Part shown: positions 3,001 to 51,024 of the stretch, piece after piece
How positions within the stretch are numbered: position 1 is the stretch's first letter
Layout: each line of letters begins with the position of its first letter
NCBI GenBank assembly: GCA_963924565.1
Contig: OZ004608.1
Coordinates: 6,882,001-6,946,000 of the forward strand
DNA from: Ascidiella aspersa
Taxonomy: Eukaryota
DNA: 64,000 nt
Direction of reading: 5' to 3'
Notes under the pieces: generated by a model
Database searches by the model: none
What the model was told of the DNA's origin: nothing
What the model saw: the letters and a program-made list of their open reading frames with translations, nothing else
Program-made: the position numbers and the translations under genes

Positions 3001-3925
3001 CATCAAGTGACTTATTCACGTATTATCAACTTCCACACATATTAATCTTCAATGATAAATTCCGGTAGTAAAACAAATGGTTCGAGCCGTAGATTAATTG
3101 ACAAATACACATAAACCACTATAATATATACAATTTAGCAAAATAATACATTGCTTTTGGCCAGGTTGTTTAAGAGCCAAAGGTTTGTTTTATTAACAAA
3201 ACAATGCAGGTACCTGACGTGTGAGTTTATCAGACATAAATGCTCACGGACATCATGTTGCGGCAGCAAAACCTTGGATCAATCGTGCTCTATTAGTTTT
3301 CCAATATTTGGATATGCAGAAAAAAAGCCTATTTTTCAAACACACCTCAACTACTAACGTTGACAAATTTAGCACGCAGATCAATGAATAGATTTCAGCA
3401 AGGATATTGAGTAGTAAAAGGCTTACGCTCATAACAACAAAGCACTGCAGTAGGACGGAAATTCTCAATATCACTTTATAAGTGATCAAAGCGCGGGGGC
3501 ACCATCTAACGGATACATAAAATAATTGTGTCTTAACCGTTTGCCACCGTATGACATACAATTAGAAACAAATTACTAATACAATACGTTGAGTAGCTAA
3601 TAACTTAATACCTCTTTTTCATACAAACTGCTATACCTTTAAAGAAAAGCAAAAATAAATGGCTCTAAAATATATTTCTATAAAATGTTTTATTTAAAGC
3701 TTCCCAAAAATTCTTCTGTATAGTTGTATCCCCGATTACTGCTAAAACAAGATTAAACTTTAGCACCATTTTAACTGACATATTTATATTTACTTTTTAG
3801 AACCTGAATATGAAAAGGCTTTGATCCTAGAAAAAGAACAGGATGACAAAGAAAAGAAACCATTGGTCACCGTTCAAGAAAAACCGGATTTAGATAGCCT
3901 TTATTCTGTTGTCAACAAAAATTAA
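1..3925 (+). CDS. Gene 1 (5' end outside window): type I TM C-type lectin receptor, QPD/WYD head, long Tyr- and Pro-rich tail
   Basis: Phase-compatible GT-AG exons: <1-226 (PNNGFYIGLKR...WLDG...QPDNHSGPENC...WYDISC...YICQK), 371-526 (S/T stalk), 1050-1176 (TM IAIIASSAGGGSLLLIIIIAAVLVCL), 1594-1649 (RRMQK), 1894-2331 (TTYAKI, HVYSKL, DLPPPPP, YQDI, YSTI, YAAI, YSTM, SLYTSM), 2733-2873 (LLLPPPPPDFYITVHK), 3801-3925 (DSLYSVVNKN*). Confidence 0.88.
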
Positions 3926-5418
3926 CTCGGATATAGTTAAATATCTAACTATTTAAACACCGATCCAAAAATATCAAAACTATTTGAAGACCGATTTTTT
4001 TTGTATGTCGTTGTTTTTTGTAATTCATTTTCGACCAACTATAACATCTGAGCTCTAAAATATAAAATTTTTAAGCAAATTAAGCGATTGCTTCGACCTG
4101 TTTTTAACCTTTCATATTGCTTTGCTGCTCTTACGCATCCTACATGTTTTTGGTGACACTCATTTGATTGACTGCACACCAGTAATTTAATCAGCGGTCT
4201 GACTGAAATAAAGCTTCCTAAAACGTATTAAAGCAGAGCATCGCTGTTCGGTCAAACTGCCATTCCCATATTTTACTAATTTTTCTTATTTTTAGAAGAG
4301 CTCTTTCTTTCAAATTTTTATGTAATAATTACGTTTTCTATGACTTAAGTTACTTGTGAGTGGTATTTTATGGCAGATAATAAATAAGTCGTTATGCACA
4401 CAATTTTTGTAAATATGTTAGGCTTTTTCACTACTATTTATGTGATGTATATTTTATTTTTACAATATTCTTTATTCGTTTACCGTATGTTTATATAACC
4501 TAATAAGTTTGCCTCTTCACAACGATTTTTTACAAAGCATAGATTTGTTTTTTTCACATTAAAATTTCACTGATGCTAATTTTTTTTTGCTGTTTTCAAA
4601 AATTATTCATTAACATCATCTATTAACTTAGAATTTTTACGATCGGTATTTTAGGAACACCATATGTTATATGTTTGCGTCTTTTTTGACATATGGTTTT
4701 ACATGTCAATTTTTCCTACATTATTGTTTAGGAATAATTATGGCTAAACATTCGGCTCTTGTAAACTCGTTTAGGAAAATATATGTGTCTATGTGAAATG
4801 CTTCACGCATTAAGCAGCGTTCCTTCCAGTACGCTATAGAGACATTTGTGCCACGGAAAGATAAAAAACATATGCCTACATTTACCACAATTACTTGTCG
4901 ATTTTCTTACAGTTTGTCATATTGTCTGAACAGTGCGTTAAAGAACGCGTTGTTAACAGCCGGTTTGCCATACATTCTTGCTAGTCCGTCCAGTATTTGC
5001 TTTATTTTAAGTGTTTTTGCAACTTTAAGGGTGTACTATTTTTCGCTTTGTATCCTTTTTGGAAACTCTAACAAAAAAGCGAACTGAATGTATAGTTTGC
5101 ATTTTTATGTATTGCACGCTGCTGCTACAGTTCCAAATTTGCATGACTGGTTGTAAGTTTTGCGTAGTGTGTTCGGCAAAAGCAACTCCAACGCAAACGC
5201 ATTCCTGGTGTTTTTTTGTTTTCAATCGCACAAGCAAACTTTACTGAAAGCTTAATCATTGCATTTCTATAAAAATTACCTAATATAAACGGGCAAATAT
5301 GTAAGGTATTTTAGCACAAAAATACGGTGCATCGCACTAGGTCATGCTAAAATATTTATTTGGTCCTGTATGTTCGAATTCCGTTCCAATAATTACTGTA
5401 GTCTGATTACCTAGCAAC

Positions 5419-6312: not shown

Positions 6313-8330
6313 ATGCATAATATTCGGCTTGTAGTTCTATTTATTCTACTGTGTGAAGCTTCCAATGTGACGTGGCATAAGTTTGACTACTCAGAATTTT
6401 ATGTCGCCACCAACTCTTCAGCAAACTTCGATGGAGCACTTTTGTCTTGTACAGGCATGGGTGCGACTCTGGCCAAAGTCAACTCTTCAAACATTCAATT
6501 GTTTTCAGCAAGTTTAACAGGTATGTTGGCCTAAATATAATATTGATTAATACTTGACGAGGATTTTCGAAGCACCCTATAAATGTGTTTAGCACCAAGA
6601 AAGGGTCACTTCATTGGACTGAAGGGAGACCCATCACCTACTAACTTTACCTGGTTGGATGGTTCGATATTAACATGGTCTAATTGGAGAGGTGGTGAAC
6701 CGAATAATCTATTGGTGTCTGGAAACGAGGATTGTGTTGTTATGGGAGCTCCATGGGATAGCGGATATAGTTTCCTCTGGAACGACTATCCATGTTACTT
6801 TTCAGTAGCATATATTTGTCAGAGAACCAATGGTAAATACTTGTATGTTGACAGTTTAAGAGCGGTTGTAGAATTTTTTAATTTGTTGCTGTAAGTGCCG
6901 AGGATTTTGAAATGAGGATTTTGTTGTTATGTAAGCTTCTCGGAATTCAACATTTACCAGGATGTTGAGTTAAACAATTTTCCTTGCAATTATGCACTTC
7001 GCTAAATATGCTTGAGTTTGGGAATAGCTATGGGTTGGCAATATGATGTTATTGTGACTAATTCCTTAAAGATATTTGCAAACGCATTAAGAGTTCCCAA
7101 TGGCCAGTTTACAAAATGTAAGAACTACTAATGCCAACCCACTTATTTTGACTATTTAAAATTTAGTGTATATAACGAATATAAATACTGTTTTGTTACA
7201 CTTCACTTGCAGTAAGTGTTAAACCGTGCTTCGAAAACTTTATACGATTTCTATTTAGGTTGATCTAGCATTTTGATAAAATCGTGCTACATTTAGGCTT
7301 AGGAACTCAATCAAACACAACAAATATTTCAACCTCTGGAACCGAAGCAGTAACAAGACTGAGGTTTAAAACAGCAACACCCACAGAAAACAACAAGGAT
7401 GTGACGCAAACACATAAGACAACACTTGGTGTAGTGACAACGACTGTAGGTAAGTTAAACCTAATATTAAGAGTGGAACTTCTGCAATTGACAACAGGCC
7501 ATGTAATATTGCTTATAAAATACCTCTATGAATTCTAGGTGATTGGACCTGCATTTATGCCTCTCTTCGCCTGCCCATGATAGATGTATAGAAAAAAATA
7601 AAATTCAAACTTGTTTTCTTCAAAAATGTCATATTAAGATTCTTATTCGTTTCTGTTAGGTTGTGCCACCAGTAGCCCCCAAACAATCGCGACCAACCAG
7701 CAGGAAAACAGCTCACCAGTAGTCTTAGGAGCATTGGTCGCTTCCATAATTTTCCATTTTCTTATCACTGTCATTGCTATCTACTACAGAAAGTTAGTTT
7801 TGCTATATAAAATGGACTAGTGGTTACGTTCGATAACTGTATAACTTTCACTTCATATTTCCTGCAGAAAATATTCTACCGCAAGTCAATCAGCAAGTGC
7901 ATCATTTATTGGCACAGGTATGACCAAAAATTTAATATATATCCTATATCATAAAAACTTACCTATTGAATACAAATAAGCCAATGCAATGTTTATAGTA
8001 AATGGAAACCGTTACTAATGGACCATGCAGTAAAACTAAATTTAGATTTAATTTTCTGAATATTTTAAAACTTGACGTCTAGAATTGTAGCCATAGAAAT
8101 AGATATCATACAAAAGGCATCTTAAACGTATTTTTATAATCATTACGAAAATGAACTTAAATGTTTGTTTATGTGCTTAATATCTGTTTTATACAGAGCG
8201 TCAGGCGACAGTTCAATATGTCAACGTTCACTTAGCTGTTGGAGAGAAACGACAGAGTCAGGATTGTGCTACAATCAATAACGACCCTCTGCAAAGCGGC
8301 CGCGTTACGTTCCAAAGCGTCACTCAATAA
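6313..8330 (+). CDS. Gene 2: type I TM C-type lectin receptor, EPN/WND head, His in TM, short tail with YVNV
   Basis: Exons 6313-6520 (signal peptide + CTLD N-half), 6593-6832 (FIGL, WLDG, EPN, EDC, WND, YICQR), 7297-7449 (T-rich stalk), 7660-7792 (TM VVLGALVASIIFHFLITVIAIYY), 7868-7917, 8197-8330 (ERQATVQYVNVHL...VTQ*). All GT-AG and in phase. Confidence 0.88.
6911..7011 (+). pseudogene. Decayed CTLD C-terminal fragment in intron 2 of gene 2
   Basis: Reads NEDFVVM*ASRN...NNFPCNYALR*IC, versus NEDCVVMGAPWD...NDYPCYFSVAYIC in the exon just upstream. Confidence 0.55.
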
Positions 8331-10797: not shown

Positions 10798-13700
10798 ATG
10801 CATAATATCTGGCTGGTCGTTCTTTATATTCTACTGTGTGAGGCTTCCACTGTACCTTGGCATAAGTTAGACAACTTAGAATTTTATGTCGCCACCAACT
10901 CGTCAGCAAACTTCGATGGAGCACTTTCGTCTTGTAATAGCTTGGGGGCGACGCTGGCTAAAGTAAATTCTTCAAACATTTAATTATTTTTAGCAGATTT
11001 ATCAGGTATGTAAATATAAATTATTTATAAATATTGACGAGGACTTTTGACGCTTATTTGTGTGTTTAGCTCCAAGCAAGGGCTACTACATCGGTCTAAA
11101 GAGGAACCCATCACCTACTAACTTTTCTTGGTTGGATGGTTCAAAGTTAACTTGGTCGAGTTGGCGAGGCGGTGAACCGAACAATCATGCAACAAGTGGA
11201 AACGAGGATTGTGTGGTTATAGGAGCTCCTTGGGATAATAAAACTGGCTTTCTCTGGAACGATTACCCTTGCGGCTTTTCAATAGGATACATTTGTCAGA
11301 GAACCATCGGTAAATACTTGCATGTTGACAGTTCAAGAGCGGTTAAGATTTATGTTTAGTAAGTTGTTGACCATAAATTTATTTAAAAAACAATCGATTT
11401 TTTTTTATAACGCTTTATACAAATAATTCAGTTCCCCGTATGTTTACGTCTATCAACTTTATAGTACCGTAAATAAAAATCGTGCATAGAACAACTTATT
11501 TGGTTATGATAAATTTTGCTTAGGGTATTTTTGGTTTGATAAAGAAAGTGTCTTTGCAGTAAAACTATTTGTAACAAAAGCATTTCTGGCTAATACAAAT
11601 ACTATATTTATTTTCAGCTACCAACGAAACGGCTCCAATCGATTCACAAACATCGGTTATATTGGGAGCAACATTAAGCTGTATTATTATTGTGCTTCTT
11701 ATAATTTCAGCTGTCTTATTCTATAAGAGCTGGGTGTATGGTAAACAGCAGGCTTGGAAAGCTTGGTATCTTACGTACGATCATGTTGTAATATTCCAGG
11801 AAGCAGAATAAGCAGGCTTCAGACCGCCAACGTAATGAACCGACAGGTTGGTATGTTTGTTTATACGTTGAAAAAATAACACTACTCAGTTACAATATAA
11901 CTGTTAATTACAATAAACGCCAATTGCCTGCTTACATAAAAGCGTTTAGGTCCATGTTACGTGCATCACATAAAACACCTCAATTAAGTAATTGCCAAAA
12001 GCCAAATCTTGGAGTTCGTATTATCTTTAAGTTATATACATTATACTTTTGTAAAAACATTAAGTTAAAAATGTTTGGGTTGCTCATAAAATGACGTCCA
12101 GTTTACAAGACGAGCGAAAACTTTTAAATTTGAATTAAGAGAATGTTTTAAAGTTGCAGAAGGAAAACAGCTCTTAATTAATAAAGCTTGATAGCGTTAC
12201 TTAAAAGCACAATTTGGAGATGCTTGTCGCATAAAAACTACAATGCGTATTTTGTCGAATTTGTGATTTAGCGGCCATATAAATCGCATCTGCAATATGC
12301 TGCAAAATAGGTTAGGTTTACGATTAGTGCTGACATTTATTTTGACTCATGTAGAAGCAACAACTGACAACGCCCAAACAGCAAACCAGGAAGAAGAAAG
12401 GCGGCCACCAAGTGTGGAATACTCAACCTTAGCCGAAGCCCGACAGGATTTTTCTCAAAGTGTAACTTTAGAAGGCGAGAACGTCTATTCCCGACTCCAA
12501 CGTGAAGCCCCTCCTTCCAAATCAACTAATCTTACAGAATATCATCCAAATACTAATCCTCAACTTCCCGCTGAACTACACAACGCCTATTACGTCACAG
12601 ACGGAGGTATGACTATTTACTAGTGAATTCCAGACTATAAGTTGTTGTAGGCTGGACTTGCTGTACTACAAACCTGATTGATTATGCCAACTGATTAAGG
12701 TTGTAGCCTTTAGAAAAGCACTTAGTATATCGTGTCATTTTTTGTGAAATTAAAGGGTATTGCTGGATGCTCAAACCAGCGATAATTGAAAATTAATTCA
12801 ACGTCATTTGAATTAAAATTCTAGTTCCGACATTCAACAATTGTGTTCAAGGGTTTTTTGTTCATATAAATTAGTTATAAGGCAATTTAAATCCCTTGAT
12901 TATCTTTTATTGTGGTACAGTACAAACATCCGAATTCTCCGGTTCAAAGGCTGAACCCTTGACGAATTCAAGCAATATTCCCGGAAAACCGCCAGTGCAC
13001 GAAGTAACAGAGCAATGTGCTTCGCACGAAGTTTACGCGGCTGTCAGAAAAGGTTAGGAAATTCACTAAATTTCGAGAAGTTAGCGAGTTCAAAAACTAC
13101 AAACAGCAACCCAGGGTTGGCAGATTGCCAATTAACGGCCAAAACCGAGATTTTTTTTAGAATGCGCTTGGCCGAAGATATTTCTCTTGCCCTTTTGTCC
13201 GCTTTTTTCCTTTAATAGGCAAATTAACATTATAATATTTTGTTTATTAGTTTTTGCTAAAAGTCTGTGCGCTGGATAGTCGAAGCAATTACAAGGAATT
13301 TAATTCTCTAAAGTGAATGTTAAATGATGTTTGTGGACTTTAAGGCCGTATCTTGCACTTAAGCAGGTATGAGAACTTGTATTGTTGTTACAGTGGGAAA
13401 TCGCAACAATTAGATGTTTATAATATGGCTGAAAAATATTCACATTTGTAAATTTTAGTATTTATTAACGTTTGTCGCCTTAAGTGTGAGTGATGAATAC
13501 CTGAAACCAATTCGAGGGTGAGAGTTTCAGATCTCTGAAGTCTAATGTAAAACTTCGCGCGCCAAGCTCTGCGAGGTTACTAAAATAGCACATGTTATAC
13601 TGTATATCAGGAGCAGTTCTAATCTTTGAAGCATTTTTTAACTGCCAAGCAAAACTCTAAATACAACCCCTCTCAAAGTGTATTGGGCTTTAACAAATAA

Positions 13701-14044
13701 TTTAACCGTTGTCGTATCAGATTTGTCCTTTTATTTAAATTTAGCTGCTGGTCACCTTGCAAACTCCAGCGCAAAGCAAAACAATTTAAAGCAATTTTTA
13801 ACTTTAGCATAGCCATGTATCATACTTATTGTGTCATTTACATGTCTGCTGTGACATTATTTTTTTACCAAAATTTAAACAACACTATAAATGGTACTCG
13901 AAACATAAAAAAAATTCTCCGAGTTTTATTGTTTCAACAGAACCAAGGAAAAGAAAGACCCAAAATAAAGACACAACCGACCAACAAACTTCATCTAAAC
14001 CACACGACGTGGAACCAATATATACAGCTGTTAACAAGCAATAA
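10798..14044 (+). pseudogene. Gene 3: EPN/WND lectin receptor, paralog of gene 2, with an in-frame TAA in exon 1; no stalk exon; ITIM and EPIYT tail
   Basis: Exons 10798-11005 (TAA at 10981-10983 where gene 2 has CAA; frame continues LFLADLS to the donor), 11070-11309, 11618-11735 (TM VILGATLSCIIIVLLIISAVLFY), 11800-11846, 12355-12606 (VEYSTL, NVYSRL), 12921-13052 (EVYAAVRK), 13941-14044 (DVEPIYTAVNKQ*). Confidence 0.82.
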
Positions 14045-15841: not shown

Positions 15842-18800
15842 ATGCGCGTCGTTTTGACATTAGTTGCGTGTTTCCTTCTGAGTGAAACAACAGCTGTTAC
15901 TTGGCACCAGTTAAACGAGAAGGAATACTACATTGCTGCAACCGAGTCAACAAATTTTAATGGAGCACGTACCGCTTGTGGTAAGCTGAACGCGACTTTG
16001 GCAACAGTCAACTCTTCATCGATTCAGAATTTTCTGACAAATTTTACAGGTTTGTGACTAAAACTTTTACTTGGTTGTAGTTTTACATCGTTTGTGGCTT
16101 ACACAACGTTTGTTTTCAGTTCCAGGGGGATTTTACATCGGTTTGAAGCGGACAAAAGGTAGTGAATTCCAATGGCTGGATGGAACAGCTTTGATGTATA
16201 AGTCATGGGGAAATCAGCAACCTGACAACCACGATGGAAATGAGAAGTGCGTCACCATGGGTATTTCCTGGAGTAGCAATTTACTGTGGTATGACATTCC
16301 TTGCAGCAACACATTCGGGTACATTTGCCAGAGAAACATTGGTAAGTGCACAATCCTGTATTTTGCCATAAACTCGACTTAAAAATTAGTAACAAATGTC
16401 GTGTTATTATGTCTTTACATATCACTTACCTGACCTGTATAATATGTTAGTTTTTTCTATATATTTTCCAAACTTGTAAACTTGCCGATACGGATATGGA
16501 AACTCCACCACACGCTACACAAAGTTTTACATTTTTTCGTTTTGTCAGGAACGAACCGTTTTAAACTGACCCCATTCAGCAATCAGCATAGTGATACAGA
16601 AATCAAGTGTAAACACATAAAGCCCCATTGGTTTTAAAACAATTCTTTTAAAGTGATAAGATATCATACAAAGAAAAATAAGATTAACATCAACATATGC
16701 GTTTATGTTTTTGAAAGCCAAACTATATAAAGTCCTGTCCCCACACAACCTGGTCCGTCCCTGACCCTACGTAATCTATGTCATATTTCAAAGCTAAAAA
16801 AACTAACCGTACAATTAAACAGGGCGTCAGTATCCCAAAGTCATTAATATTTGTGTTGCGCTGATGTATAGTTTCCCGCTTAATAATATGTATTGATTTA
16901 ATTCACTCACAATTGCCAACGTGTGTGCTTATTCTTTATATGCTATTTCACCTATATTGACTTTTCTCCATTCGGAAGTAAAAAAATGTGTCACAACACA
17001 AACAGCCAAAGCGGAATTGTAACAAACATATTGATCTCTCTAATAGCATGTAATACAAGTTAAGGCAACAAAAATAAGAACTAATATAAGGTAATCCAAT
17101 TAAGACAACAAAATAAGTGCTTTTCCGTAACAAGGAATTATCTCTATGTGTGTGTCTTGCTTCCCGTGAGTAGTGCTAACATTATAGTAATGAACCATTT
17201 ACATATACCAAAGTAAGTGTCGTTTGGCCGTTTAAACTATTAAGCCTGGTGGTTTCTAAAGTAGAGTTACACTACGGAAAGTCGCATAAGATTAACTGCT
17301 CTGTTGTTCAATCGCCTGATTAATGGAGCGCCTGACGTTAGTGTCGCGTGACGTTGCTTTAAAATAATTCCGCATATTTTGGGGAATAGGATGCTGTTTT
17401 CCGTTTAGAATTTAAGTAGCATTCTAAAGTTCAGCTGACAATAAACGAGATTGAAACAGCACAATAACTATGCAACAAGGTTAAATTGTTTTAATGTTTG
17501 GCTCTTTTATTGTACAAAAAAATTGTATCAACCGACAGAGCAAAACTTGGAATCCTAATGAATTTGAAATATTTCTCGGCACGTTTAGGCGTTAAAACAT
17601 GGCATCTCGCTTTGCAATATAAAATTGAAGCAGCAACCGTATAAACTGTGATTTAAAACTTGGACGATACATTTGCCAGAGATTTATTGGTGGGTTTAGG
17701 CTATATTAATCATTTATATGCAACTACTGAAGACAACATTAATGAAATCTGTATAGCTTACCAGTAGGTCAAAATAATCTTTTCATTTTATAATTTATCA
17801 TAACCCTGTTAACGTTTGGTTTTAATTTATTCCTTTACTAATTTCATCATATTTAACACGGAAATCCGACGTTATGTAGCAGGTTTTCATTTTTTGCCCA
17901 ACAAAATGTTTTTGAATTCCAGCACCGTAATGTAAGCGAGCATAGGCGACCGTATTATTTTTTCCTTTTAACGCAGAAATTCCTACGACGGTTCTTCCGA
18001 CTACACATATAGCTACAACAACATCAACAACAACAACAACACTCACTCTCAAACCACAAACGAGCGCAGGTTTGAATCTGAACAGTTTTATGTACTGCTA
18101 ACTACTTTAACTGCAGTGAAAAAACGAACAGGAAGCGATAACAGCAATAATCCTTAAGGTTTTTGTCATTTTTGTAATTGAAATGCCTTGTGGTTTGTGA
18201 CAGCTTTGTGATTCGAATTAAGTCCATCATGTTGATAGAAATGGCTACCACATAATAAAACATGTGAACATCTAGTTAAAATAGATTTATTAACAAAAAG
18301 TCGATATTTTAAGGAAAATTACAAAGTGTTAATTTTTAGTCTGCGATGGTTTCCGGTGTGCTTACTCCTATTAAGCAAACCGGTGTGTTTACTGACTATA
18401 CCTGTTGACTAATTTCCATTAGGAAGTAAAAACATTTGTCACAACCCAAACAGCCACAGCGCAATGACTATAAGTGTATACACATGATAACAAACATATT
18501 GATCTATATAGTCAGAGGTAATACGAGTTTAAGTCAACAAAAATAAGAACTAATATAAGGTAATACCAATTAAGACAACAAAACAAGTGCTTTTCCGTAA
18601 CAAGGAATTATCTCTATGTGTGTGTCTTGTTTCCCGTGAGTAGTACTAACATTGCAGTAATGAACCATTTACATATACCAAAGTAAGTGTCGTTTGGCCG
18701 TTCAAACTATTAAGCCTCGTGGTTTCTACAGTAGAGTTACACTCCGGAAAGTCGCATAAGATTAACTGCTCTATTGTTCAATCGCCTGATTAATGGAGCG

Positions 18801-21800
18801 CCTAACGTTAGTGTCGCGTGACGTTGCTGTAAAATAATTCCGCATATTTTGGGGAAAAGGATACTGTTTTCCGTTTAGAATTTAAGTAGCATTCTAAAGT
18901 TCTGCTGACAATAAACGAGATTGCAACAGCACAATAACTATGCAACAAGGTTAAATTTTCTTAATGTTTGAATCTTTTATTGTACAAAAAAATTGTATCA
19001 ACCGACAGAGCAAAACTTGGAATCCTAATGAATTTGAAATATTTCTCGGTACTTTTAAGCGTTAAAACATGGCATCTCGCTTTGCAATATAAAATTGAAG
19101 CAGCAACGGTATCAACTGTGATTTAAAACTTGGACGATACATTTGCCAGAGATCTATTGGTGGGTTTAGGCTATATTAATCATTTATATGCAACTACTGA
19201 AGACAGCATTAATGAAATCTGTATAGCTTACCAGTAGGTCAAAATAATCTTTTCATTTTATAATTTATCATAACCCTGTTAACGTTTGGTTTTAATTTGT
19301 TCCTTTACTATGTGAGCGAGCATATGCGACCGTATTATTTTTTCCTTTTAACGCAGAAATTCCTACGACGGTTCTTCCGACTACACATATAGCTACAACA
19401 ACATCAACAACAACAACACTCACTCTCAAAACACAAACGAGCGCAGGTTTGAATCTGAACAGTTTTTGTACTGCTAACTACTTTAGCTGCAGTGAAAAAA
19501 CAAACAGGAAGCGATAACAGCAATAATCCTTAAGGTTTTTGTCACTTTTGTAATTAAAATGCCTTGTGGTTTGTGACACCTTTGTAATTCGAATTAGGTC
19601 CATCCTGTTGATAGAAATGGCTACCACAGAATAAAACATGTGAACATCTAGTAAAAATAGATTTTTTAACAAAAAGTCGATATTTTAAGGAAAATTACAA
19701 AGTGTTAATTTCTAGTGTGCAATGGTTTTCGGTGTGCTTACTCCTATTAAGCAAATCTGTGAAGCTTTTAAGACGGTGTGGTTGGTGTACAGCATAACTG
19801 AGCCCCTATCGCTAAATATTGCTTAAATGCTGTTAACCATGTCAAAATCTTTATTATCAGGGTAACTGTTTCGTATATTTTAACAATACCAAGTAATAAT
19901 ACAAAATTGGTTCAAACTTATCAATATTTTGTTCTCAGTTTCGTTGCCAATCGTGATTGGTGCAGCGGGAGGTGGCCTTCTTCTGATTTGCCTCATCGTG
20001 TTCGTCATACTTATGATGTAAGACATGAAAAGATATTTTTTGAGTACATGATATGTTATACATTAAGGGCGTATCTTTAACGAAACCGTTGTCATCAGGT
20101 TTCGGCATGTCGATCACTTCTCTGCTGACTCGTATAAAATAAGTATATTACTTTCGACAAAGTCTGACCCTGTGTTTCATTCTGGTTTTTTAAGCTTTAA
20201 ATTTTACTTCCTTGTGCTAAATGTTAGAACGTACGGTACACCAAGGTGGTTGTCTAATAATCTCAAACCAAATCGATTTCTTTTCTGAATTTGCATTACA
20301 TATTATGTTTATAATGTAACTACCCACTTCGGATTTCGGATTAAATTTTAAGTTTTTTTTTACTTAAAAACGGCCTACCTTATCCCTGGATTTCTCAACT
20401 AAGCAATAAAGGTTTACAATGACCAGTGATGTTATTGGTTTTATTGATGGAGTTTGTAGTGTTTAAAAGGCAATAAAAATGATGAAAATGGCAAATAGGT
20501 CAGTTACTTGTTTTGCGTTTTAAATGTCTAGAATTATTTTTATATAAATAAGCAACGTTTTCATGAACGACAATGGGTTGTGAGGCCTTGTCGTATATAT
20601 ACTAAATAATATTTACTTTTTAGATGTCGACGTCGGACTACCAAACCGTCGTCCATGAATGAATGTCTAACAGGTATTTTGCATAAAATAACGCGTTTTG
20701 CGAATTAAACTAATGAAGCGACCGGGCTTTGTACAAACATTTTGCAAATACAAATCAGTGTTTGGTGTTTTAAATGACCAAAGCCGTTTGTAAAACTTCC
20801 ACAAGTCTTCGAAATATATTGTTTTAGAAACTAGTTATTTCGACCATACGTTTGCAAAATCCAAATAACCAAAGGCCAGAAACTGCACTTCACGCGAAAC
20901 AGTACGGCTTATTTGAGCTTAGACGCGTAGACCCTCAACAACTTCCGTGTAGGTGGCGTAACTGTATAGTCAGTAAATCTCTAGTCAACTTAGCGACGGC
21001 GCGCTAAGCACTTTGGTACTGTTTTATGGAATAACAGCTCTCCGAACTAACCGCGTTAAGTTGCCTTTGATGGCCTCTCTAGGCTGAAATTGCTGTCCTG
21101 GTAATTTGAATTCTTTCTTTGTACGTTGAAACAGTTTGTTTTTGCGAACGCATAAATCTGTTTGTAATGCGCATAAAAAATTGTAAAGTCTTGTGTATAA
21201 GCTTTGCTGTTTCTGCATTTTGCCGAAAAGCATAAAAATCACATGAATAGAAAAAAATTATACTTTGAACTGATGAAGCACGGTTGTACGAAAGCTGGTC
21301 GAGAATTCAATACAATTTGTCTTTATATAGTGTCACCTTATTACAGTATTTAGCATAATACATGTAGGACCATTTACAAAAATAGAATTATTATTAGTGC
21401 AAACGGATTCAACACAGTACATGCTATCGGTCGATAATTTTACCAACAAAGTGTGAAATATTACTTTGATATTTTCTTGACGTTTGTCTGGAACGTTTAA
21501 TCTTTACGCCCAAAACAAATTGAATTACATTTTGGATCAATAAACCCCCTCCCAAATATACTTGTTTACAATGCTTTTATAAATACAATGAAACATAAGT
21601 TATGTAGTCAGCTAATGTTTGGTTTAACGACTTTCGTGAAACCCGACAAAAATTAGTATGAAAACAAAAGGCAGAAAATAGTACAAAATTTGTTGGAACT
21701 ATAGAAAAGCATTTTTTCGTTAGACCAACCGGATGCAATCTACAACGCGGTAGATGCCAGCGGGGAAGATGGAAGGCCTGAGAACAACTATACCCTCGAC

Positions 21801-23002
21801 GAGTCCAATTCTGTTGGTCTGCAAAGAAGAGCGGATCCCAGGACAGACGAAGGCTACAGCTCGCTTGAGATTGTAAGACCTGGCGAATCGGCATACGACT
21901 CGAATGTCCAATACAGCTCTATCAACACAACAGAGAGAAAGCCTTTAGGGCCTGACCAGGATGCGGTCTATTCTGCTGTGAACAAAGGTAAAATGGCTAA
22001 CTTTTGTAGAAGTGGGTCCTAATAAAATATATACAATATATATATATGTATATATATATGTTGTATTTCAATTAGCAGAAGCCTAATATTTTCTCTCGAT
22101 AGCAAAACCGATATTTTTGGTAAAAATAACTATATTTATTATTAAGCAAAATAGATGAAATTGAAATGTACAAACGTATTGTTTTCTAGGATATATAAGA
22201 AATAAATTTTCCTTAGCCTATCGAGGTTTAGTTTTTTCTTCAGTTAACAGCGTACCATGTTTAATAACTGTAACTTTTAGACTAAAATCAATGCATTCTA
22301 ACGCAAATTAGAGGTAAAATTGTTATATAAATTTGCTATTAAGTCTGTGGTGTACCATACTATGGTATCCTACTAGTTGAGTATGCTATACTATCGTATA
22401 ACATATATCTATATACTGCCATTTGGCATCTCATATTGGCTCTGATTTTAATTGTATTTCCTCAATGCAAGAAATAATCAATCAATTATTGAATATCTCT
22501 AATTGATTAATTGAAATTATAGCCTATTTATATAAGCCTTTGTTTTAAAATGTTCTTTTTTTTTTCAAACAACATACTCATAACAGTAACACCCGAACCA
22601 TTTAAAAATACAAACCTTTAGTAAGAATTTTTAAATGATATATATATATCAACTGTTAATAAACGGCGCCAAAACTTTTCGTCAGAAACAAAGAAAAAGT
22701 CCAATGAAAAGGAAACTGTGGCTAACCCGCTTTACGGAGAAACGAACAGTTACACTGAGAAGGAAACTGTGGCTAACCCGCTTTACGGAGAAACGAACAG
22801 TAACACTGAGAAGGAAACTGTGGCTAACCCGCTTTACGGAAAAACGAACAGTTACACAGAGAAGGAAACTGTGGCTAACCCTCTTTACGGAGACACGAGC
22901 CCCTCCTCGGAGAAGGAAACTGTTGCCAACCCTCTCTATGCTTCCTCCAACCACGAGCAGCATTCAACGCCTGATGATTTGTACTCGCAAGTAAAAAAGT
23001 GA
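15842..23002 (+). CDS. Gene 4: type I TM C-type lectin receptor, QPD/WYD head, duplicated Thr-rich stalk exon, tail with 5x NPLY repeat
   Basis: Exons 15842-16049, 16120-16341 (YIGL, QPD, WYD), 17977-18069 and 19357-19446 (EIPTTVLPTTHIATTTST..., both phase 1-1), 19939-20017 (TM LPIVIGAAGGGLLLICLIVFVILM), 20624-20673 (CRRR), 21724-21987 (AIYNAV, DEGYSSL, VQYSSI, AVYSAVNK), 22686-23002 (ANPLY repeats, DDLYSQVKK*). The join of head exons to downstream exons is inferred. Confidence 0.8.
17558..17689 (+). pseudogene. Collapsed lectin-gene 5' relic (copy 1)
   Basis: Acceptor-like acag then ATG: MNLKYFSARLGVKTWHLALQYKIEAATV* (resembles exon 1 TWH..Y.I), fused out of frame to INCDLKLGRYICQRFI plus a GT donor (exon 2 end). 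Confidence 0.55.
19028..19159 (+). pseudogene. Collapsed lectin-gene 5' relic (copy 2)
   Basis: MNLKYFSVLLSVKTWHLALQYKIEAATVST / INCDLKLGRYICQRSI|gt. Confidence 0.55.
22706..22940 (+). repeat. Coding VNTR, 51-bp unit (EKETVANPLYGxxNSYT), 5 units
   Basis: Directly repeated gagaaggaaactgtggctaacccgctttacgga.... Paralogous arrays at ~33049-33232 (4 units), ~41687-41820 (3) and ~50830-50962 (3). Confidence 0.95.
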
Positions 23003-30042: not shown

Positions 30043-33000
30043 ATGGTCACACTAGTCAATGTGATGATTGCATTTACTACTGCGACAAGTTCATTTGCGA
30101 CGTGGCACCAATTGGAAGACTTTCAATACAGCATTCAAAGCAATGTAAAGCGAACGTTTAAGGAAGCTGCTACGGCTTGCAGGGAAATGAATGCATCTCT
30201 GGTTAAAGTCAACTCGTCGATTATCCAAATGTTCTTAGCTCAGAAAATTAAAACAGGTAGCTTAAACAATTAAAGAGCGAATCAAACGTAACTCATATTT
30301 ATCAATTAGACAAATCATTCCTAAAGCTTAGTACTATTCTGGGTCACTATCCATTTTACGGAAGTTAGAATAATGTAGGCCTATTCGTTCGAACAAAATT
30401 GAGTCCCGAGTAAGACCAAAATAGAAATACACAATGTCGGAAAAACTTGTAAAGCGGAATTAAACAAGCCTTTCAGAAAACAACCTAAACGGACAGAGTA
30501 CGATTTTAACAATCTCTACTCTAAACACACATAGGGTATTACTGAGTCTTTTGTTTAACTATTATGTAAGGTGTTATCTAAAATTTCGATTTAAATATTG
30601 AGCTTTATTGTTTTTAGTGTGCGTTTCATTGTTCAGGTTCACGCACTTACTATATTGGATTAACGAGTGGAACGGATGACAAGTTCAAATGGTTGGACGG
30701 ATCAAGTTTAGCTTATACGAAATGGGAAAAGGGGGAGCCAAATGATTGGTGGTGGAATGAGGATTGTGCCGTGATGAAAGAGAGTCCAGAATTTTTTTGG
30801 AATGATATATCATGCAGCCGAAAAGAAAAATACATTTGTCAGAGACCAATTGGTATGTATACTGTATAGGCTATCCTTTACGTAGATTGTGAATGACCTA
30901 CGTTATACCAACAACTAAATATAATTATAAAGAAAGATTAAATTATTAATTTCGTTTCTGAAAAAAAACATTGCTTTCCCTAAATTATTGCCTGTTCGTT
31001 GGCCGAAACAAAAATATTATTTCTGATAGATTACCGAATCACTTAAACCCGATTGTGTGAAATGAAACATGCCTGCATAAAGTGCCTGATGAAGTGTCTC
31101 GGAAAATGCATACATGATTGATTGATTGTGTATAAACAACGTAAAGTTATAAATATCTAGCCTTGGAAATATCTACCACCACCCATGTTGTTGTATCCAA
31201 TAGCTTTGTTAGTTACGTTCATATTGAAGGTTTAGCATTTAATATTTTGTTTTGTAGTTTTATGTATTTACGTTGGTTTACAGAGCTACTTAGCCCTACA
31301 ACAGCTTCGTCGACTCATCAAACAACTGTTGAAGGCTTCACTAATGCGGTGATAAACCCCACAACTGTTAACAATAATGCACTAACCAAGAACGTTCCAA
31401 AAGGTAGCCATTGACTTCACTTTCTCAAACGTAATGTACAGTAAAACGACAATTCATCAAAATTATTTGGTTTCGAAAACAGTTTAACCCTCTTTGTAGA
31501 ACAAACTAAATATGAGCCCACTATCACGGATATGACGTCATACGAAGGAAAAACAATAAGCAGCAGATCGTCATCAGGTCACGTGTTTTTCTATGCAATT
31601 TGGCAAAAGTTAATTCGCATTGAAAGCGTAGCATTAATTGCGGAAGCATTTTGATTTTGCAAAACGATTATAGCCTTATTTGTAACGTAAAGGCTCTACT
31701 TGCAGACGGTCTTACTGAGACGTATGCAAAGAAATCTGGATCATCAACTGTTGAATAATTGCACCGATCTCCGGAGTTGTGCTTCTTTGCCTTGCAGCTC
31801 TTGCTGTAGCATTGTGCATAAGGTGGGTTGAACTGCTTATAACATGTGTAGGTTAAGAGTCTAAATTGTTTAAAGGCGTCATGTTCCTATTTTCAGGAAG
31901 AGCAGAGCGGTCGAACAACAACCAAGCATTAATCACGATGAAGGTTAGTGTTACATTCCCAGGTAGCCTATAGGACAATGCTCGTATATCTCGGCTGCTA
32001 AAAGCTCAAATTGCCTCTGCTAAAAGTTCAATATGAATTAGCCGGATAGTCAATAGTGTTGTCCGACACTTGTTATTCTATTCCGATACAAACAGATAAA
32101 CGCCGAGAAGCACGTTTATTGTAAACATGCTCTTTCTGAGAAATTTACGTTTCATAGTGGAAAACGCTCACAGTGGCAAAATGCTTTGTTCTGACTTAAA
32201 AATGCTTTGTTCTGACTTAAAATTTAGCATAGTTTAGTATACGATATGTTACGATACCACGCTACTATCGTACGAGAACAAATACTAGTATCGAGGATCG
32301 GTTGTTGTAATGGCACTCGACATTTCGAAAAGTGACCATGTTTGTTTCACATCCGGCCGTAAATGATTTCATCCGAAGTTGTTTTAACTGAAATAGTTGT
32401 CGGACTTGAAATATGTAAATGGGAAAAAACAAATCTTATTCTAAATTTGCTGATAGGTAATCAGGCCACGTCTCGGAATGTGAACGAAATGCCTGCAAAC
32501 AACGAATACTCGTCTTTAAACTTGGAAACTACTTCTCAACCTCACAGCGGTGGTCAAAATGCGTCTGAAACTGGCAACGATTATTCGCATCTTAACTTAT
32601 CCGGAATAGCAACTGGAAATGTCACCTCACAAGAACAGGCGGTGTACTCCGTGGCAACGATTGGTAAGCCTTCAACATAGATGTCCTAGGAATTACATTC
32701 ATCTAAAATCAACTAGCTTGGGATAGTGCAACGGCGGGCCTGCAAACTGAAGTCAAACATATTGACTCTGATTTTAATTGTATTTCCTCAAGACAAGAAA
32801 TAATCAAGAAGAAACAATCAATCAATTATTGAATATCTCTAATTAATTAATTGAAATTATAGCCTATTTTTATAAGCCTTTGTTTTAAAATATATTTTTT
32901 TTCAAACAACATACTCATAACAGTAACACCCGAACCATTTAAAAATGAAAACATTTAGTAAGAATTTTTAAATTACATATATATATATATATCAACTGTT

Positions 33001-33294
33001 AATAAACGGCGCCAAAACTTTTCGTCAGAAACAAAGAAAAAGTCCAATGAAAAGGAAACTGTGGCTAACCCGCTTTACGGAAAAAGGAACAGTTACACTG
33101 AGAAGGAAACTGTGGCTAACCCGCTTTACGGAGACAAGAACAGTTACACTGAGAAGGAAACTGTGGCTAACCCGCTTTACGGAGACACGAGCCCCTCCTC
33201 GGAAAAGGAAACTGTTGCCAACCCTCTCTATGCTTCCTCCAACCACGAGCAGCATTCAACGCCTGATGATTTGTACTCGCAAGTAAAAAAGTAA
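30043..33294 (+). pseudogene. Gene 5: EPN/WND lectin receptor with a 1-nt deletion giving a stop just before the TM (null allele or secreted form)
   Basis: Exons 30043-30256, 30637-30852 (EPNDWWWNEDC...WND), 31284-31403, 31500-31577, 31706-31822 (GTT GAA TAA at 31750-31758 versus GTT GTA ATA ATT in genes 6-8), 31897-31943, 32457-32663, 33029-33294. Confidence 0.85.
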
Positions 33295-38933: not shown

Positions 38934-41881
38934 ATGGTCACACTAGTCAATGTGATGATTGCATTTACTACTGCGACAAGCTCATTTGCGATGTGGCACC
39001 AATCGGACAACTTTGAATACAGCATTCAAAGCAATGTAAAGCGAACGTTTAAGGGAGCTGCTACGGCTTGCAGGGAAATGAATGCATCTCTGGTTAAAGT
39101 CAACTCGTCGATTATCCAAATGTTCTTAGCTCAGAAAATTAAAACAGGTAGCTTAAACAATTAAAGAGCGAATCAAACGTAACTCATATTTATCAATTAG
39201 ACAAATCATTCCTAAAGCTTAGTACTATTCTGGGTCACTATCCATTTTACGGAAGTTAGAATAATGTAGGCCTATTCGTTCGAACAAAATTGAGTCCCGA
39301 GTAAGACCAAAATAGAAATACACAAAGTCGGAAAAACTTGTAAAGCGGAATTAAACAAGCCTTTCAGAAAACAACCTAAACGGACAGAGTACGATTTTAA
39401 CAATCTCTACTCTAAACACACATAGAGTATTACTGAGTCTTTGGTTTAACTATTATGTAAGGTGTTATCTAAAATTTCGATTTAAATATTGAGCTTTATT
39501 GTTTTTAGTGTGCGTTTCATTGTTCAGGTTCACGCACTTACTATATTGGATTAACGAGAGGAACGGATGACAAGTTCAAATGGTTGGACGGATCAAGTTT
39601 AGCTTATACGAAATGGGAAAAGGGGGAGCCAAATGATTGGTGGTGGAATGAGGATTGTGTCGTGATGAAAGACAGTCCAGACTTTTTTTGGAATGATATA
39701 TCATGCAGCCGAAAAGAAAAATACATTTGTCAGAGACCAATTGGTATGTATACTGTATAGGCTATCCTTTACGTAGATTGTGAATGACCTACGTTATACC
39801 AACAACTAAATATAATTATAAAGAAAGATTAAATTATTAATTTCGTTTCTGAAAAAAAACATTGCTTTCCCTAAATTATTGCCTGTTCGTTGGCCGAAAC
39901 AAAAATATTATTTCTGATAGATTACCGAATCACTTAAACCCGATTGTGTGAAATGAAACATGCCTGCATAAAGTGCCTGATGAAGTGTCTCGGAAAATGC
40001 ATACATGATTGATTGATTGTGTATAAACAACGTAAAGTTATAAATATCTAGCCTTGGAAATATCTACCACCACCCATGTTGTTGTATCCAATAGCTTTGT
40101 TAGTTACGTTCATATTGAAGGTTTAGCATTTAATATTTTTGTTTTGTAGTTTTATGTATTTACGTTGTTTACAGAGCTACTTAGCCCTACAACAGCTTCG
40201 TCGACTCATCAAACAACTTTTGAAGGCTTCACTAATGCGGTGATAAACCCCACAACTGTTAACAATAATGCACTAACCAAGAACGTTCCAAAAGGTAGCC
40301 ATTGACTTCACTTTCTTAAACGTAATGTACAGTAAAACGACAATTCATCAAAATTATTTGGTTTCGAAAACAGTTTAACACTCTTTGTAGAACAAACTAA
40401 ATATGAGCCCACTATCACGGATATGACGTCATACGAAGGAAAAACAATAAGCAGCAGATCGTCATCAGGTCACGTGTTTTTCTATGCAATTTGGCAAAAG
40501 TTAATTCGCATTAAAAGCGTAGCATTAATTGCGGAAGCATTTTGATTTTGCAAAACGATTATAGCCTTATTTGTAACGTAAAGGCTCTACTTGCAGACGG
40601 CCTTACGGAGACGTATGCAAAGGAATCTGGATCCTCAACTGTTGTAATAATTGCATCGATCTCCGGAGTTGTGCTTCTTTGCCTTGCAGCTCTTGCTGTA
40701 GCATTGTGCATAAGGTGAGTTGAACTGCTTATAACATGTGTAGGTTAAGAGTCTAAATTGTTTAAAGGCGCCATGTTCCTTTTTTCAGGAAGAGCAGAGC
40801 GGTCGAGCAACAACCAAGCATTAATCACGATGAAGGTTAGTGTTACATTACCAAAGTATAGGACAATTCTCGCATATCTTGCCTTCTAAAAGCTCAAATT
40901 GAATTAGCCGGATGGTCAATAGTGTTGTTCGACACTTCTTATTCTATTCCGATACAAATATATAAACCCCGAGAACCACGTTTATTGTTAACATGCTCTT
41001 TCTAAGAAATTTACGTTTCATAGTGGAAAACGCTCACAGTGGCAAAATGCTTTGTTCTGACTTAAAAACGCTTATTTAGCATAGTTTAGTATACGATATG
41101 TAACGATACCACGCTACTATCGTACGAGAACAAATACTATAGTATCGAGGATCGGTTGTTGTAATGGTAATCGACATTTCGAAAAGTGACCAGGTTTGTT
41201 TCACATCCGGCCGTAAATGATTTCATCCGAAGTTGTTCATTTGTGTTTTAAGCAACTATATGTGTTATTATTTAACTAAGTTAAGTACATAAAAATTGAT
41301 GACATTTTAATTGAAATAGTTGTCGGAAACAAATCTTATTCTAAATTTGCTGATAGGTAATCAGGCCACGTCTCGGAATGTGAACGAAATGCCTCCAAAC
41401 AACGAATACTCGACTTTAAACTTGGAAACTACTTCTCAACCTCACAGCAGTGGTCAAAATGCGTCTGAAACTGGCAACGAATATTCGCATCTTAACTTAT
41501 CCGGAATAGCAACTGGAAATGTCAACTCACAAGAACAGGCGGTGTACTCCGTGGCAACGATTGGTAAGCCTTTAACATAGATGTCCTAGGAATTACATTC
41601 ATTTCAAATTACATATATATATATATATATCAACTGTTAATAAACGGCGCCAAAACTTTTCGTCAGAAACAAAGAAAAAGTCCAATGAAAAGGAAACTGT
41701 GGCTAACACGCTTTACGGAAAAAGGAACAGTTACACTGAGAAGGAAACTGTGGCTAACCCGCTTTACGGAGACAAGAACCCCTCCTCGGAGAAGGAAACT
41801 GTTGCCAATCCTCTCTATGCTTCCTCCAACCACGAGCAGCATTCAACGCCTGATGATTTGTACTCGCAAGTAAAAAAGTGA
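38934..41881 (+). CDS. Gene 6: intact EPN/WND type I TM lectin receptor, tail with YxxL motifs, NPLY repeats and C-terminal LYSQVKK
   Basis: Exons 38934-39147, 39528-39743, 40175-40294, 40391-40468, 40597-40714 (TM VVIIASISGVVLLCLAALAVALCI), 40789-40835, 41357-41563 (NEYSTL, NEYSHL, AVYSVA), 41667-41881 (NTLY, NPLY x2, DDLYSQVKK*). Confidence 0.9.
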
Positions 41882-47230: not shown

Positions 47231-47355
47231 TGATTAAGTAAAAGGCGGTATTTCAATGGAATGGATAGTACAAGATTAAGTAAAAGGCGGTATTTCAATG
47301 GAATGGATAGTACAATGATTAAGTAAAAGGCGGTATTTCAATGGCATGGATAGTA
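47231..47355 (+). repeat. 43-bp minisatellite, 3 copies
   Basis: Same unit as at 29479. Only a single copy occurs upstream of gene 8 (~56644). Confidence 0.9.
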
Positions 47356-47707: not shown

Positions 47708-50700
47708 ATGGTCACACTAGTCAATGTGATGATTGCATTTACTACTGCAACAAGCTCATTTGCGATGTGGCACCAATCGGACAACTTTGAATACAAAACT
47801 GAAAGCAATGGAAAACGAACGTTTAAGGGAGCTTCTACGGCTTGCAGAGAAATGAATGCAACTCTGGCCAAAGTCAACTCTTCGGTTATCCAAATGTTCT
47901 TAGCCCAGAAAATTAAAAGAGGTAGCTTAAACAATTAAAGAGCGAATCACACGTAACTCATATTTATGAAATAGACAAATCATTCCTAAAGCTTAGTACT
48001 ATTCTGGGTCACTATCCATTTTACGGAAGTTAGAATAACGTAGGCCTAATCGTTCGAACAAAATTGAGTTCCGAGTAAGACCAAAATAGAAATACACAAA
48101 GTCGGAAAAACTTGTAAAGCGGAATGAAACAAGCCTTTCAGAAAACAACCTAAACGTACAGAATACGATTTTAACAATCTCTACTCTAAACACACAAAGG
48201 GTATTATTAAGTCTTTGGTTTAACTATTTTGTTGGTTAGTAAGGTGGTATCTAAAGTTTCGATTTAAATATTGAGCTTTTATTGGTTTTAGTGTGCGTTT
48301 CATTGTTCAGGTTCAAGCACTTACTATATTGGATTAACGAGAGGAACGGATGACAAGTTTAAATGGTTGGACGGATCAAGTTTAGCTTATACGAAATGGG
48401 AAAAGGGGGAGCCGAATGATTGGCTGTGGAATGATGAGGATTGTGCCGTGATGCAAGACAGTCCAGACTTTCTTTGGAATGATATATCATGCAGCCGAGA
48501 AGAAGCATACATTTGTCAGAGACCAATTGGTATGTATGCTCTGTGGGCTACCATCAAGATTTTGAATGACCTAAGTAATATCAGCAACTAAATATATATA
48601 TAAAGCAAAATTAAAGTTCTAGTTTTGTTTCTGCAAAAATATTGTTCCTCCTAAATAATTGCCTGTTTGTTAGACGAAAAGCAATATTCTTTCTGATAGA
48701 TTACAGGATTAGTCATGCACGATTTTGTATACCGAAACAAAATTTCACACAATACGTGAAATGTCAAATTGTGATTGTGTGATTGTGTATATAAATTTGT
48801 ACACATATCAGAACGGTACACAATCCATAATAATCTATAACCTTCGGGTTTTAACCAAAATGATTCCATATCCTAATAAATCTCTACAAATATAGTAAGG
48901 CTAGAAATATGTAGCCTTAGAAATATCTACCACCACCCCATGTTGTTGTATCCAATAGCATTGTTAGTTGTGTTCATATTGAAGGTTTAGCATTTAACAT
49001 TTTTGTTTTGTAGTTTTATGTATTTACGTCGGTTTACAGAGCTACTTAGCCCTACAACAGCTTCGTCGACTCATCAAACATCTGTTGAAGGCTTCACTAA
49101 TGCGGTGATAAACCCCACAACTGTTAACAATAATGCACTAACCAAGAACGTTCCAAAAGGTAGCCATTGACTTCACTTTCTCAAACGTAATGTACAGTAA
49201 AACGACAATTCATCAAAATTATTTGGTTTCGAAAACAGTTTAACCCTCTTTGTAGAACAAACTAAATATGAGCCCACTATCACGGATATGACGTCATACG
49301 AAGGAAAAACAATAAGCAGCAGCTCGTCATCAGGTCACGTGTTTTTCTATGCAATTTGGCAAAAGTTAATTCGCATTAAAAGCGTAGCATTAATTGCGGA
49401 AGTATTTTGATTTTGCAAAACGATTATAGCCTTATTTGTAACGTTAAGGCTGTACTTGCAGACGGCCTTACGGAGACGTATGCAAAGGAATCTGGATCCT
49501 CAACTGTTGTAATAATTGCATCGATCTCCGGAGTTGTGCTTCTTTGCCTTGCAGCTCTTGCTGTAGCATTGTGCATAAGGTGGGTTGAACTGCTTATAAC
49601 ATGTGTAGGTTAAGAGTCTAAATTGTTTAAAGGCGTCATGTTCCTTTTTTCAGGAAGAGCAGAGCGGTCGAGCAACAACCAAGCATTAATCACGATGAAG
49701 GTTAGTGTTACATTACCAAAGTATAGGACAATTCTCGCATATCTCGCCTTCTAAAAGCTCGAATTGAATTAGCCGGATGGTCAATAGTGTTGTCTGACAC
49801 TTATTATTCTATTCCGATACAAATATATAAACGCCGAGAAGCACGTTTATTGTTAACATGATCTTTCTAAGAAATTAACGTTTCATAGTGAGAAACGCTC
49901 ACAATGGAAAACGCTCACAGTGGCAAAATGCTTTGTTCTGACTTAAAAACGCTTATTTAGCATAGTTTGGTAAACGATATGTAACGATACCACGCTACTA
50001 TCGTACGAGAACAAATACTATAGTATCGAGGATCGGTGGTTGCAATGGTAATCGACATTTCGAAAAGTGACCAGGTTTGTTTCACATCCGGCCGTAAATG
50101 ATTTCATCCGAAGTTGTTCATTTGTGTTTTAAGCAACTATATGTGTTATTATTTAACTAAGTTAAGTACATAAAAATTGATGACATTTTAATTGAAATAG
50201 TTGTCGGAAACAAATCTTATTCTAAATTTGCTGATAGGTAATCAGGCCACGTCTCGGAATGTGAACGAAATTCCCGCAAACAACGAATACTCGTCTTTAA
50301 ACTTGGAAACTACTTCTCAACCACACAGCGGTGGTCAAAATGCGTCTGAAACTGGCAACGATTATTCGCATCTTAACTTATCCGGAATAGCAACTGGAAA
50401 TGTCACCTCACAAGAACAGGCGGTGTACTCCGTGGCAACGATTGGTAAGCCTTTAACATAGATGTCCTAGGAATTACATTCATCTAAAATCAACTAGCTT
50501 GGGATAGTGCAACGGCGGGCCTGCAAACTGAAGTCAAACATATTGACTCTGATTTTAATTGTATTTCCTCAAGACAAGAAATAATCAAGAAGAAACAATC
50601 AATCAATTATTGAATATCTCTAATTAATTAATTGAAATTATAGCCTATTTATATAAGCCTTTGTTTTAAAATATATTTTTTTTCAAACAACATACTCATA

Positions 50701-51024
50701 ACAGTAACACCCGAACCATTTAAAAATGAAAACATTTAGTAAGAATTTTTAAATTACATATATATATATATATCAACTGTCAATAAACGTCGCCAAAACT
50801 TTTCGTCAGAAACAAAGAAAAAGTCCAATGAAAAGGAAACTGTGGCTAACCCGCTTTACGGAAAAAGGAACAGTTACACTGAGAAGGAAACTGTGGCTAA
50901 CCCGCTTTACGGAGACAAGAACCCCTCCTCGGAAAAGGAAACTGTTGCCAACCCTCTCTATGCTTCCTCCAACCACGAGCAGCATTCAACGCCTGATGAT
51001 TTGTACTCGCAAGTAAAAAAGTGA
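47708..51024 (+). CDS. Gene 7: intact EPN/WND type I TM lectin receptor, NPLY x3 and LYSQVKK tail
   Basis: Exons 47708-47921, 48311-48529 (EPNDWLWNDEDC...WND), 49040-49159, 49256-49333, 49462-49579, 49654-49700, 50238-50444, 50810-51024. Confidence 0.9.

Follow-up and report, generated by a model that had tools for sequence, protein, structure and literature searches.

Why do the tail exons of neighbouring lectin receptor genes end, again and again, in the same short tyrosine motif? The question arises from a 64,000-nucleotide stretch of the Ascidiella aspersa genome (the window, taken at its full length), in which eight tandem genes, numbered 1 to 8 along the + strand, encode predicted type I receptors and tail exons recurrently terminate in Y-[STA]-x-V-x-K. 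The predicted exons specify a signal peptide and a C-type lectin domain on two exons, a serine/threonine (S/T) stalk, a membrane helix and phase-1 tail exons; genes 3 and 5 are broken. Exon borders were predicted from AG/GT and phase, and the exon chains from DNA only; signal peptide, stalk, single membrane helix and C-terminal cytoplasmic tail were read by eye from the exon translations, and the lectin domain was matched above the cut-off by Pfam PF00059 (E 7.3e-12, gene 4 exon 2). We conclude that the motif ends one of two interchangeable tail classes and is very probably a phosphotyrosine docking site conserved in that class. That it would, once phosphorylated, dock the SH2 domain of Csk, switching off Src-family kinases, is a reading to which the sequence evidence gives, in our judgement, an even chance.

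Both strands of the window were scored for the pattern. Nine matches lie on the + strand and none on the - strand, against a mean of 1.6 matches per strand (maximum 5 in 60 runs) under an order-2 Markov null. An earlier sequence-only reading had placed the motif at exon ends, and eight of the nine matches are indeed situated directly 5' of a phase-1 GT donor or at most one codon from a stop; the ninth (11460-11477, +) is intronic, lacks an acceptor and is a chance match outside the feature. The peptides quoted in that reading were all recovered on the + strand at the genes it named, as was the absence of the motif from genes 2 and 8, but two of its C-termini need a small correction, gene 1 reading NKN and gene 3 NKQ, so that the motif ends one residue before the stop. 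It had also described the tails as otherwise unalignable. With the motif cut, this holds for the last exons of genes 1 and 3 and the penultimate exon of gene 4 (shuffle p 1.0, 0.28 and 0.43), but not for the last exons of genes 4-7, which with their flanks are copies at 80-93% identity of one recently duplicated exon; the window therefore offers five independent motif contexts and not eight. The exon-terminal motif is a real feature.

The window proved to be a slice of a much larger complex. A search of the genome with a lectin exon yielded 105 matches, almost all of them on contig C2, on which the window lies, and the 1.4 Mb of C2 examined around them (parts of the 2.4-2.8 and 7.06-7.55 Mb regions excluded) contains at least 141 C-type lectin receptor loci. 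In the zones downstream of 141 loci (1.10 Mb, window included), where paralogs are non-independent and inflate the counts, the motif occurs 73 times in sense and 20 times in antisense orientation, and 23 versus 0 times when only matches that follow a good acceptor and reach a donor or a stop are counted. Control patterns with Y replaced by F, H or N gave 5, 0 and 1 matches, respectively. Because Y-x-x-[LI]-x-K was found 15 times versus 2, position +3 also tolerates I or L. No orthologous receptor was detected in other species at E<=1e-8 among 12 candidates, the top 150 cross-species matches being only 26-45% identical and mostly multi-lectin proteins; a cross-species search with the last exon of gene 4 returned 3 meaningless matches only.

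Conservation was measured in the gene 1 family, on 11 last exons selected by upstream sequence and not by the motif. Ten of them retain Y-[AS]-V-V-x-K, and the proportion of nonsynonymous differences (pN) is 0.039 at Y, +1, +3 and +5 versus 0.217 in the flank. Other families were partly picked via the motif itself and were excluded as proof of selection. The gene 1 family also supplied 32 penultimate-type exons, with pN at 0.244 in the motif and 0.278 in the flank; the evidence for conservation is therefore firm in last exons, whereas in inner exons it is weak. Within this family (G000:C2:6.74-6.88 Mb) we also observed a tail exon ending L-P-P-P-P-Q-D-L-Y-T-T-V, present in up to 4 copies per gene, in which a proline run adjoins the tyrosine.

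Lectin receptors of the complex carry two main tails. Class A tails end in the motif, whereas class B tails, found by profile, carry an acidic G-Y-x-x-P-N-P followed by G-Y-x-E-F. Classes were set by the nearest tail exon because the automatic gene models extended into junk exons, which gave 38 A (5 of these labels assigned by hand), 63 B and 40 unassigned loci among the 141. A tree of the lectin domains, limited to 29 A and 50 B rows by removal of 11 doubtful and 30 unassigned rows, shows 14 changes of the tail label, at least 8 of them forced by starred branches, and a single A-tail clade was rejected (p-AU, the approximately unbiased test, 1.9e-8). The lectin domains of genes 6 and 8 are 93% identical, yet their tails are A and B, and another A-B pair reaches 94%, matching the description of paired receptors as near-identical ectodomains with different tails. 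Moreover, gene 8 is 93.7% identical in tail DNA to a gene with which it shares only 50% identity in the lectin domain, while the gene 4 lectin domain shares 83% identity with a class B gene and 42-45% with genes 5-7, whose last exon it carries. From these mismatches between head and tail it follows that tails have moved between heads: they were exchanged between lectin clades. The EPN and QPD sugar-site motifs are found in both tail classes. The motif does mark one of two tail classes, but the formerly proposed split of the window into six inhibitory and two other genes is overstated and is no functional count: a single duplicated exon accounts for four of the sites, two of the genes (3 and 5) are broken, gene 2 represents a third tail type and only gene 8 has a B tail.

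Among 47 distinct class B exons, YxxP is present in 37 and YxEF in 29. The consensus of the hemi form of the tyrosine-based activation motif of immunoreceptors (hemITAM) is DEDGYxxL, with an acidic triad, G and Y-x-x-L (PMC11484026). Class B tails do not conform to it, the nearest approaches, one residue off, being DENGYIRL of gene 8 and four distinct exons terminating in DEAGYITL (G000:C2:6.46-6.60 Mb). A conserved hemITAM in gene 8 was considered and dropped, YIRL being YIRP in the closest tail paralog and most B sites being YxxP or YxEF. A further tail type with 3-5 NPLY repeats, in which no terminal motif was found, was seen at G000:C2:6467090, 6516784, 6607089, 6621799 and 6644227. Phage_tail_X and Nucleoporin_FG, to which Pfam matched the NPLY exon, were judged repeat artefacts.

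With respect to the binding partner, a profile of 16 motif ends matched one of 177,635 PDB sequences, the bacterial protein CagA (whole-chain E 1.3e-5; i-E 0.18 for its best stretch); a single tail exon searched against PDB gave no match. The match is best at the CagA A and B sites, and the third site lacks the V-x-K part; Csk binds CagA A and B, not C or D (PMC4412286). In Cbp/PAG the Csk site is YSSV, and recruitment of Csk constitutes negative feedback on Src-family kinases (PMC3492796). The ascidian motif shares with Cbp/PAG YSSV and with CagA EPIYA-A/B (PDB 3iec) the tyrosine, a small residue at +1, V at +3 and a hydrophobic residue at -1, and with the CagA A and B peptides also K at +5. 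Its sequence thus resembles proven Csk SH2 ligand sites, and a Csk SH2 exon is present in the genome (best PDB match Csk, E 6.7e-30; C1:1.0977 Mb), so that the likeness to Csk sites named in the sequence-only reading, which quoted sites of Dok1, CEACAM1 and PECAM-1 as well, has gained support. Cbp is an adaptor without a ligand-binding head and CagA a bacterial protein, whereas here the sites end predicted ligand-binding receptors. Whether Csk would be the main partner of the motif appears evenly poised. The genome further encodes Syk-like genes, one of which has its best named matches in Phallusia (50%) and Ciona (47%). Two open frames that resemble Syk/ZAP-70, lack introns and span about 600 residues were noted (L145/L146 and L151/L155, at G000:C1:3.4 and 31.7 Mb).

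A closely similar motif is already on record in another ascidian. The fester co-receptors (FcoR) of Botryllus schlosseri, which are co-receptors in allorecognition, carry a "core-2" sequence [A/D]VYxxV in C-terminal pairs 29-33 residues apart (35 from tyrosine to tyrosine in FcoR1), to which the consulted sections of PMC12582321 assign no function; Csk is absent from the main text of that paper and from the consulted passages of a review by the same group; 45 of 68 unique FcoR sequences have a membrane helix (PMC12582321). We compared the FcoR sequences by eye only: at least 19 entries in dataset 1 of that paper end in Y-A-x-V-x-K and a stop, other entries ending differently, and the motif-ending ones include FcoR1 and, by order of entries, FcoR7-01. 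Similarities extend to type I receptors in a variable cluster, a C-terminal Y-x-x-V pair with N-x-x-Y upstream, and an inner FcoR motif, QDVYTTV, resembling QDLYTTV of the gene 1 family. Exact core-2 matches here are AVYSAV (gene 4), DVYAKV and DVYASV of an immunoglobulin (Ig) receptor, whereas the majority of the remaining sites depart from core-2 at position -1 or -2. The window genes are not FcoR by membership (Ig ectodomain and fester-family partner): FcoR have Ig heads paired with fester-family genes, whereas here the heads are lectins, a family of partner genes was not observed and a separate acidic YxxP/YxEF exon makes up the alternative tail. Contig C1 encodes an Ig-domain receptor in two copies with five tail exons each, in which N-x-x-Y is followed by Y-x-x-V-x-K or a near variant, and which is possibly, judging from its sequence, an FcoR relative outside botryllids. 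Its tail exons (L190 3108-7937 and L191; G000:C1:40.87 and 40.79 Mb), of the form KEER-x-N-x-[IL]-Y ... QDVYASVDK, resemble FcoR tails by eye. NxLY-rich receptor tails without the motif occur on C7 and C6, and therefore NPxY does not always accompany it.

Several observations weigh against a Csk-docking brake built on exchangeable tails. Of the lectin loci 40 are unassigned, the lectin tree has just 126 columns and many open forks, and three genes (G000:C2:6113700, 6186503 and 6263349) combine an A-type inner exon with VEYSTV and a class B last exon. The 32 penultimate-type exons show no extra constraint in the motif and have K at +5 in just 12 cases, where it may partly reflect the splice-donor consensus, and certain paralogs show a degenerated form of the motif (YTNANK; F in place of Y in two genes). 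Since the sites behind the profile had been chosen by pattern, Y, V and K are invariant by construction, and the profile is partly circular; among the 177,635 PDB sequences it retrieved neither the Cbp peptide nor any other Csk ligand. SHP2 binds CagA via the A, B or C sites (PMC4412286), so that the likeness to CagA does not exclude SHP2. Finally, the Botryllus authors pair FcoR1 with the activating receptor uncle fester and FcoR7-01 with an inhibitory one, linking dual core-2 to the activating pair (PMC12582321), and the motif ends both the proposed activating and the proposed inhibitory co-receptor.

The alternative partner named in the sequence-only reading was an SHP phosphatase, for which the tyrosines of the last two exons would form a pair of the type of the tyrosine-based inhibitory motif of immunoreceptors (ITIM, I/V/L-x-Y-x-x-I/V/L), engaging the tandem SH2 domains. 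Tyrosine-to-tyrosine spacings of 33 in gene 3 and of 40-41 and 43 in two other families, an SHP2-like SH2 exon in the genome, the binding of SHP2 to the CagA A and B sites and SLYSVV of gene 1, which fits a loose ITIM, would all suit such a pair. Among 25 distinct motif sites, however, -2 is D/E in 15 and I/V/L in just 2 (7 if S is allowed), and the motif sites are therefore not ITIMs; nor are they immunoreceptor tyrosine-based switch motifs (S/T-x-Y-x-x-I/L/V), with T at -2 in 0 of the 25 and S in 5. Genuine ITIM matches are found elsewhere in the tails (VEYSTL, VQYSSI), the spacing rises to 71-105 in genes 4-7, and we regard recruitment of SHP as unlikely. Slightly less probable still, in our view, is an activating or neutral adaptor site, the A and B tails then not being an inhibitory and an activating form. 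FcoR1, with its dual core-2, no ITIM and activating partner, points in this direction (PMC12582321), as does a B tail that is mostly YxxP then YxEF and not hemITAM. Against this, FcoR7-01, the proposed inhibitory partner, is motif-ending as well, and the FF/FcoR pairing itself was inferred from linkage and co-expression (PMC12582321).

NPxY and tyrosine-x-x-hydrophobic sequences are classic sorting signals that occur together in genes 4-7 and also in the Ig receptor, and they could serve the internalisation of lectin receptors of an endocytic kind instead of signalling. This would leave unexplained the preference of last exons for S/T/A at +1 and for K at +5, up to 11-14 tyrosines per tail and the alternative tyrosine tail, and we consider it improbable. 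The motif might also be a neutral relic, one ancestral exon end copied often, its K kept by the splice-donor consensus, as the four window sites on a single duplicated exon, two broken genes among the six with the motif and the unconstrained penultimate-type exons would allow. Last exons, which have no donor, still keep the motif better than the flank, the flanks of different families are unalignable, and unrelated Ig receptors have the motif at their ends too, both in this genome and, in the FcoR entries consulted, in Botryllus; the relic is largely refuted for last exons and is the least probable of these explanations. Returning to Csk docking, the symmetric motif-ending phase-1 exons that stand in tandem in the gene 1 family and in the C1 Ig receptor would explain both the exon-end position of the motif and its mobility as a unit.

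Table 1. Receptor genes of the window and their motif-bearing exons (positions within the window; exon chains predicted).
Feature	Position	Strand	Description
Gene 1	1..3925	+	Type I, C-type lectin domain, S/T stalk, membrane helix, class A tail, 11 Tyr, frame open
Gene 1, penultimate exon end FYITVHK	2852..2872	+	Allelic variant of the motif
Gene 1, last-exon motif SLYSVVNK	3896..3919	+	Followed by N and stop
Gene 2	6313..8330	+	Short third tail type without the motif; last-exon relatives at C2:2.59-2.62 Mb
Gene 3	10798..14044	+	Class A tail with motif pair (Tyr to Tyr 33 residues); broken in this haplotype
Gene 3, penultimate exon end EVYAAVRK	13028..13051	+	Directly 5' of phase-1 donor
Gene 3, last-exon motif PIYTAVNK	14015..14038	+	Followed by Q and stop; sole paralog has YTNANK
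Gene 4	15842..23002	+	Mosaic, frame open; from about 22432 on, last exon and flanks common with genes 5-7
Gene 4, penultimate exon end AVYSAVNK	21963..21986	+	Exact Botryllus core-2 [A/D]VYxxV match
Gene 4, last exon	22686..23002	+	Five NPLY (NPxY) repeats, then DLYSQVKK (22976-22999) and stop
Gene 5	30043..33294	+	Class A tail, 4 NPxY, DLYSQVKK 33268-33291; frame broken
Gene 6	38934..41881	+	Open, class A; last exon with 2 NPxY and DLYSQVKK 41855-41878
Gene 7	47708..51024	+	Open, class A; last exon with 3 NPxY and DLYSQVKK 50998-51021
Gene 8	57037..60213	+	Class B last exon 59978-60213; DENGYIRL at 59998-60021

The open motif-bearing genes of the window are 1, 4, 6 and 7 (Table 1). The first exon of gene 1 lies just upstream of the window (G000:C2:6881723), and its variant FYITVHK and the motif-conforming FYTTVHK are alleles, T>C at 2859 being present in both DNA runs (X1 and X2). 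In gene 2 the tail sequence VQYVNV (8211-8228) matches the ITIM consensus. Gene 3 carries TAA at 10981-10983 in exon 1, also present in an X1 read contig (the contigs of the other haplotype do not reach that stop), and, after the membrane exon, CT at 11730-11731 where a GT donor should stand. In gene 5 a 1-base deletion near 31753 ends the reading frame ahead of the membrane helix, and the penultimate exon of gene 6 terminates in a degenerate AVYSVATI. An internal tandem duplication in gene 4 (16957-19761) doubles the Thr-rich stalk exon, the copies being 92-95% identical, and a minisatellite of about 40 bases and variable copy number lies upstream of genes 5-7 (29480-29690, 38450-38580 and 47230-47360). 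Elsewhere in the cluster, automatic models place protein kinase exons, some near kelch-like exons, between lectin genes (G000:C2:7.02-7.05, 6.15 and 2.61-2.65 Mb), and seven-helix adhesion-receptor-like exons and a transposase-like frame were seen at G000:C2:6.02, 6.13, 6.19 and 6.84 Mb.

Provided that the predicted exon chains are spliced and expressed, binding of a ligand by the lectin head would be followed by phosphorylation of the tail by a Src-family kinase, and the terminal phosphosite would then recruit Csk, damping the adjacent Src-family kinase; NPxY sites, often located upstream of the motif, may add PTB adaptors. B-tailed twins with near-identical lectin heads would give a different, probably stimulating output, as in paired receptors. 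Clustered lectin receptors with near-identical heads, different signalling ends and many broken copies recall the vertebrate Ly49/KLR and CLEC receptors of the natural killer complex, which are type II proteins. Vertebrate lectin-like receptors use an ITIM, a hemITAM or a charged membrane residue (PMC11484026), whereas the ascidian receptors are type I, mostly fail the ITIM consensus and carry tyrosines of their own in both tail classes.

The motif has been published as core-2 without a function, in the sections of the source consulted, and paired receptors are a known kind. New within the literature searched are the lectin cluster with swapped tails, the +5 lysine extension across head types and the Csk hypothesis; no description of an ascidian lectin cluster of at least 141 loci was found in the consulted parts of sources that included PMC5465252, and the core-2 definition as published in PMC12582321 omits the +5 lysine. 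Tentatively, and as a reading less likely than not, we propose that a portable Csk-docking tail exon, identical with Botryllus core-2, serves as the ascidian brake on recognition receptors in place of the vertebrate ITIM-SHP route and has been shuffled onto lectin and Ig heads across lineages. If this is true, the partner of uncle fester, a supposedly activating receptor, would carry a Src-family brake. With a core-2-like motif under constraint on unrelated lectin and Ig receptors of a second ascidian, and closely similar to Csk-binding sites, the gap in core-2 function reduces to a matter of peptide binding, and the two-tail cluster of at least 141 loci becomes a candidate invertebrate-chordate counterpart of the vertebrate paired receptor complexes.

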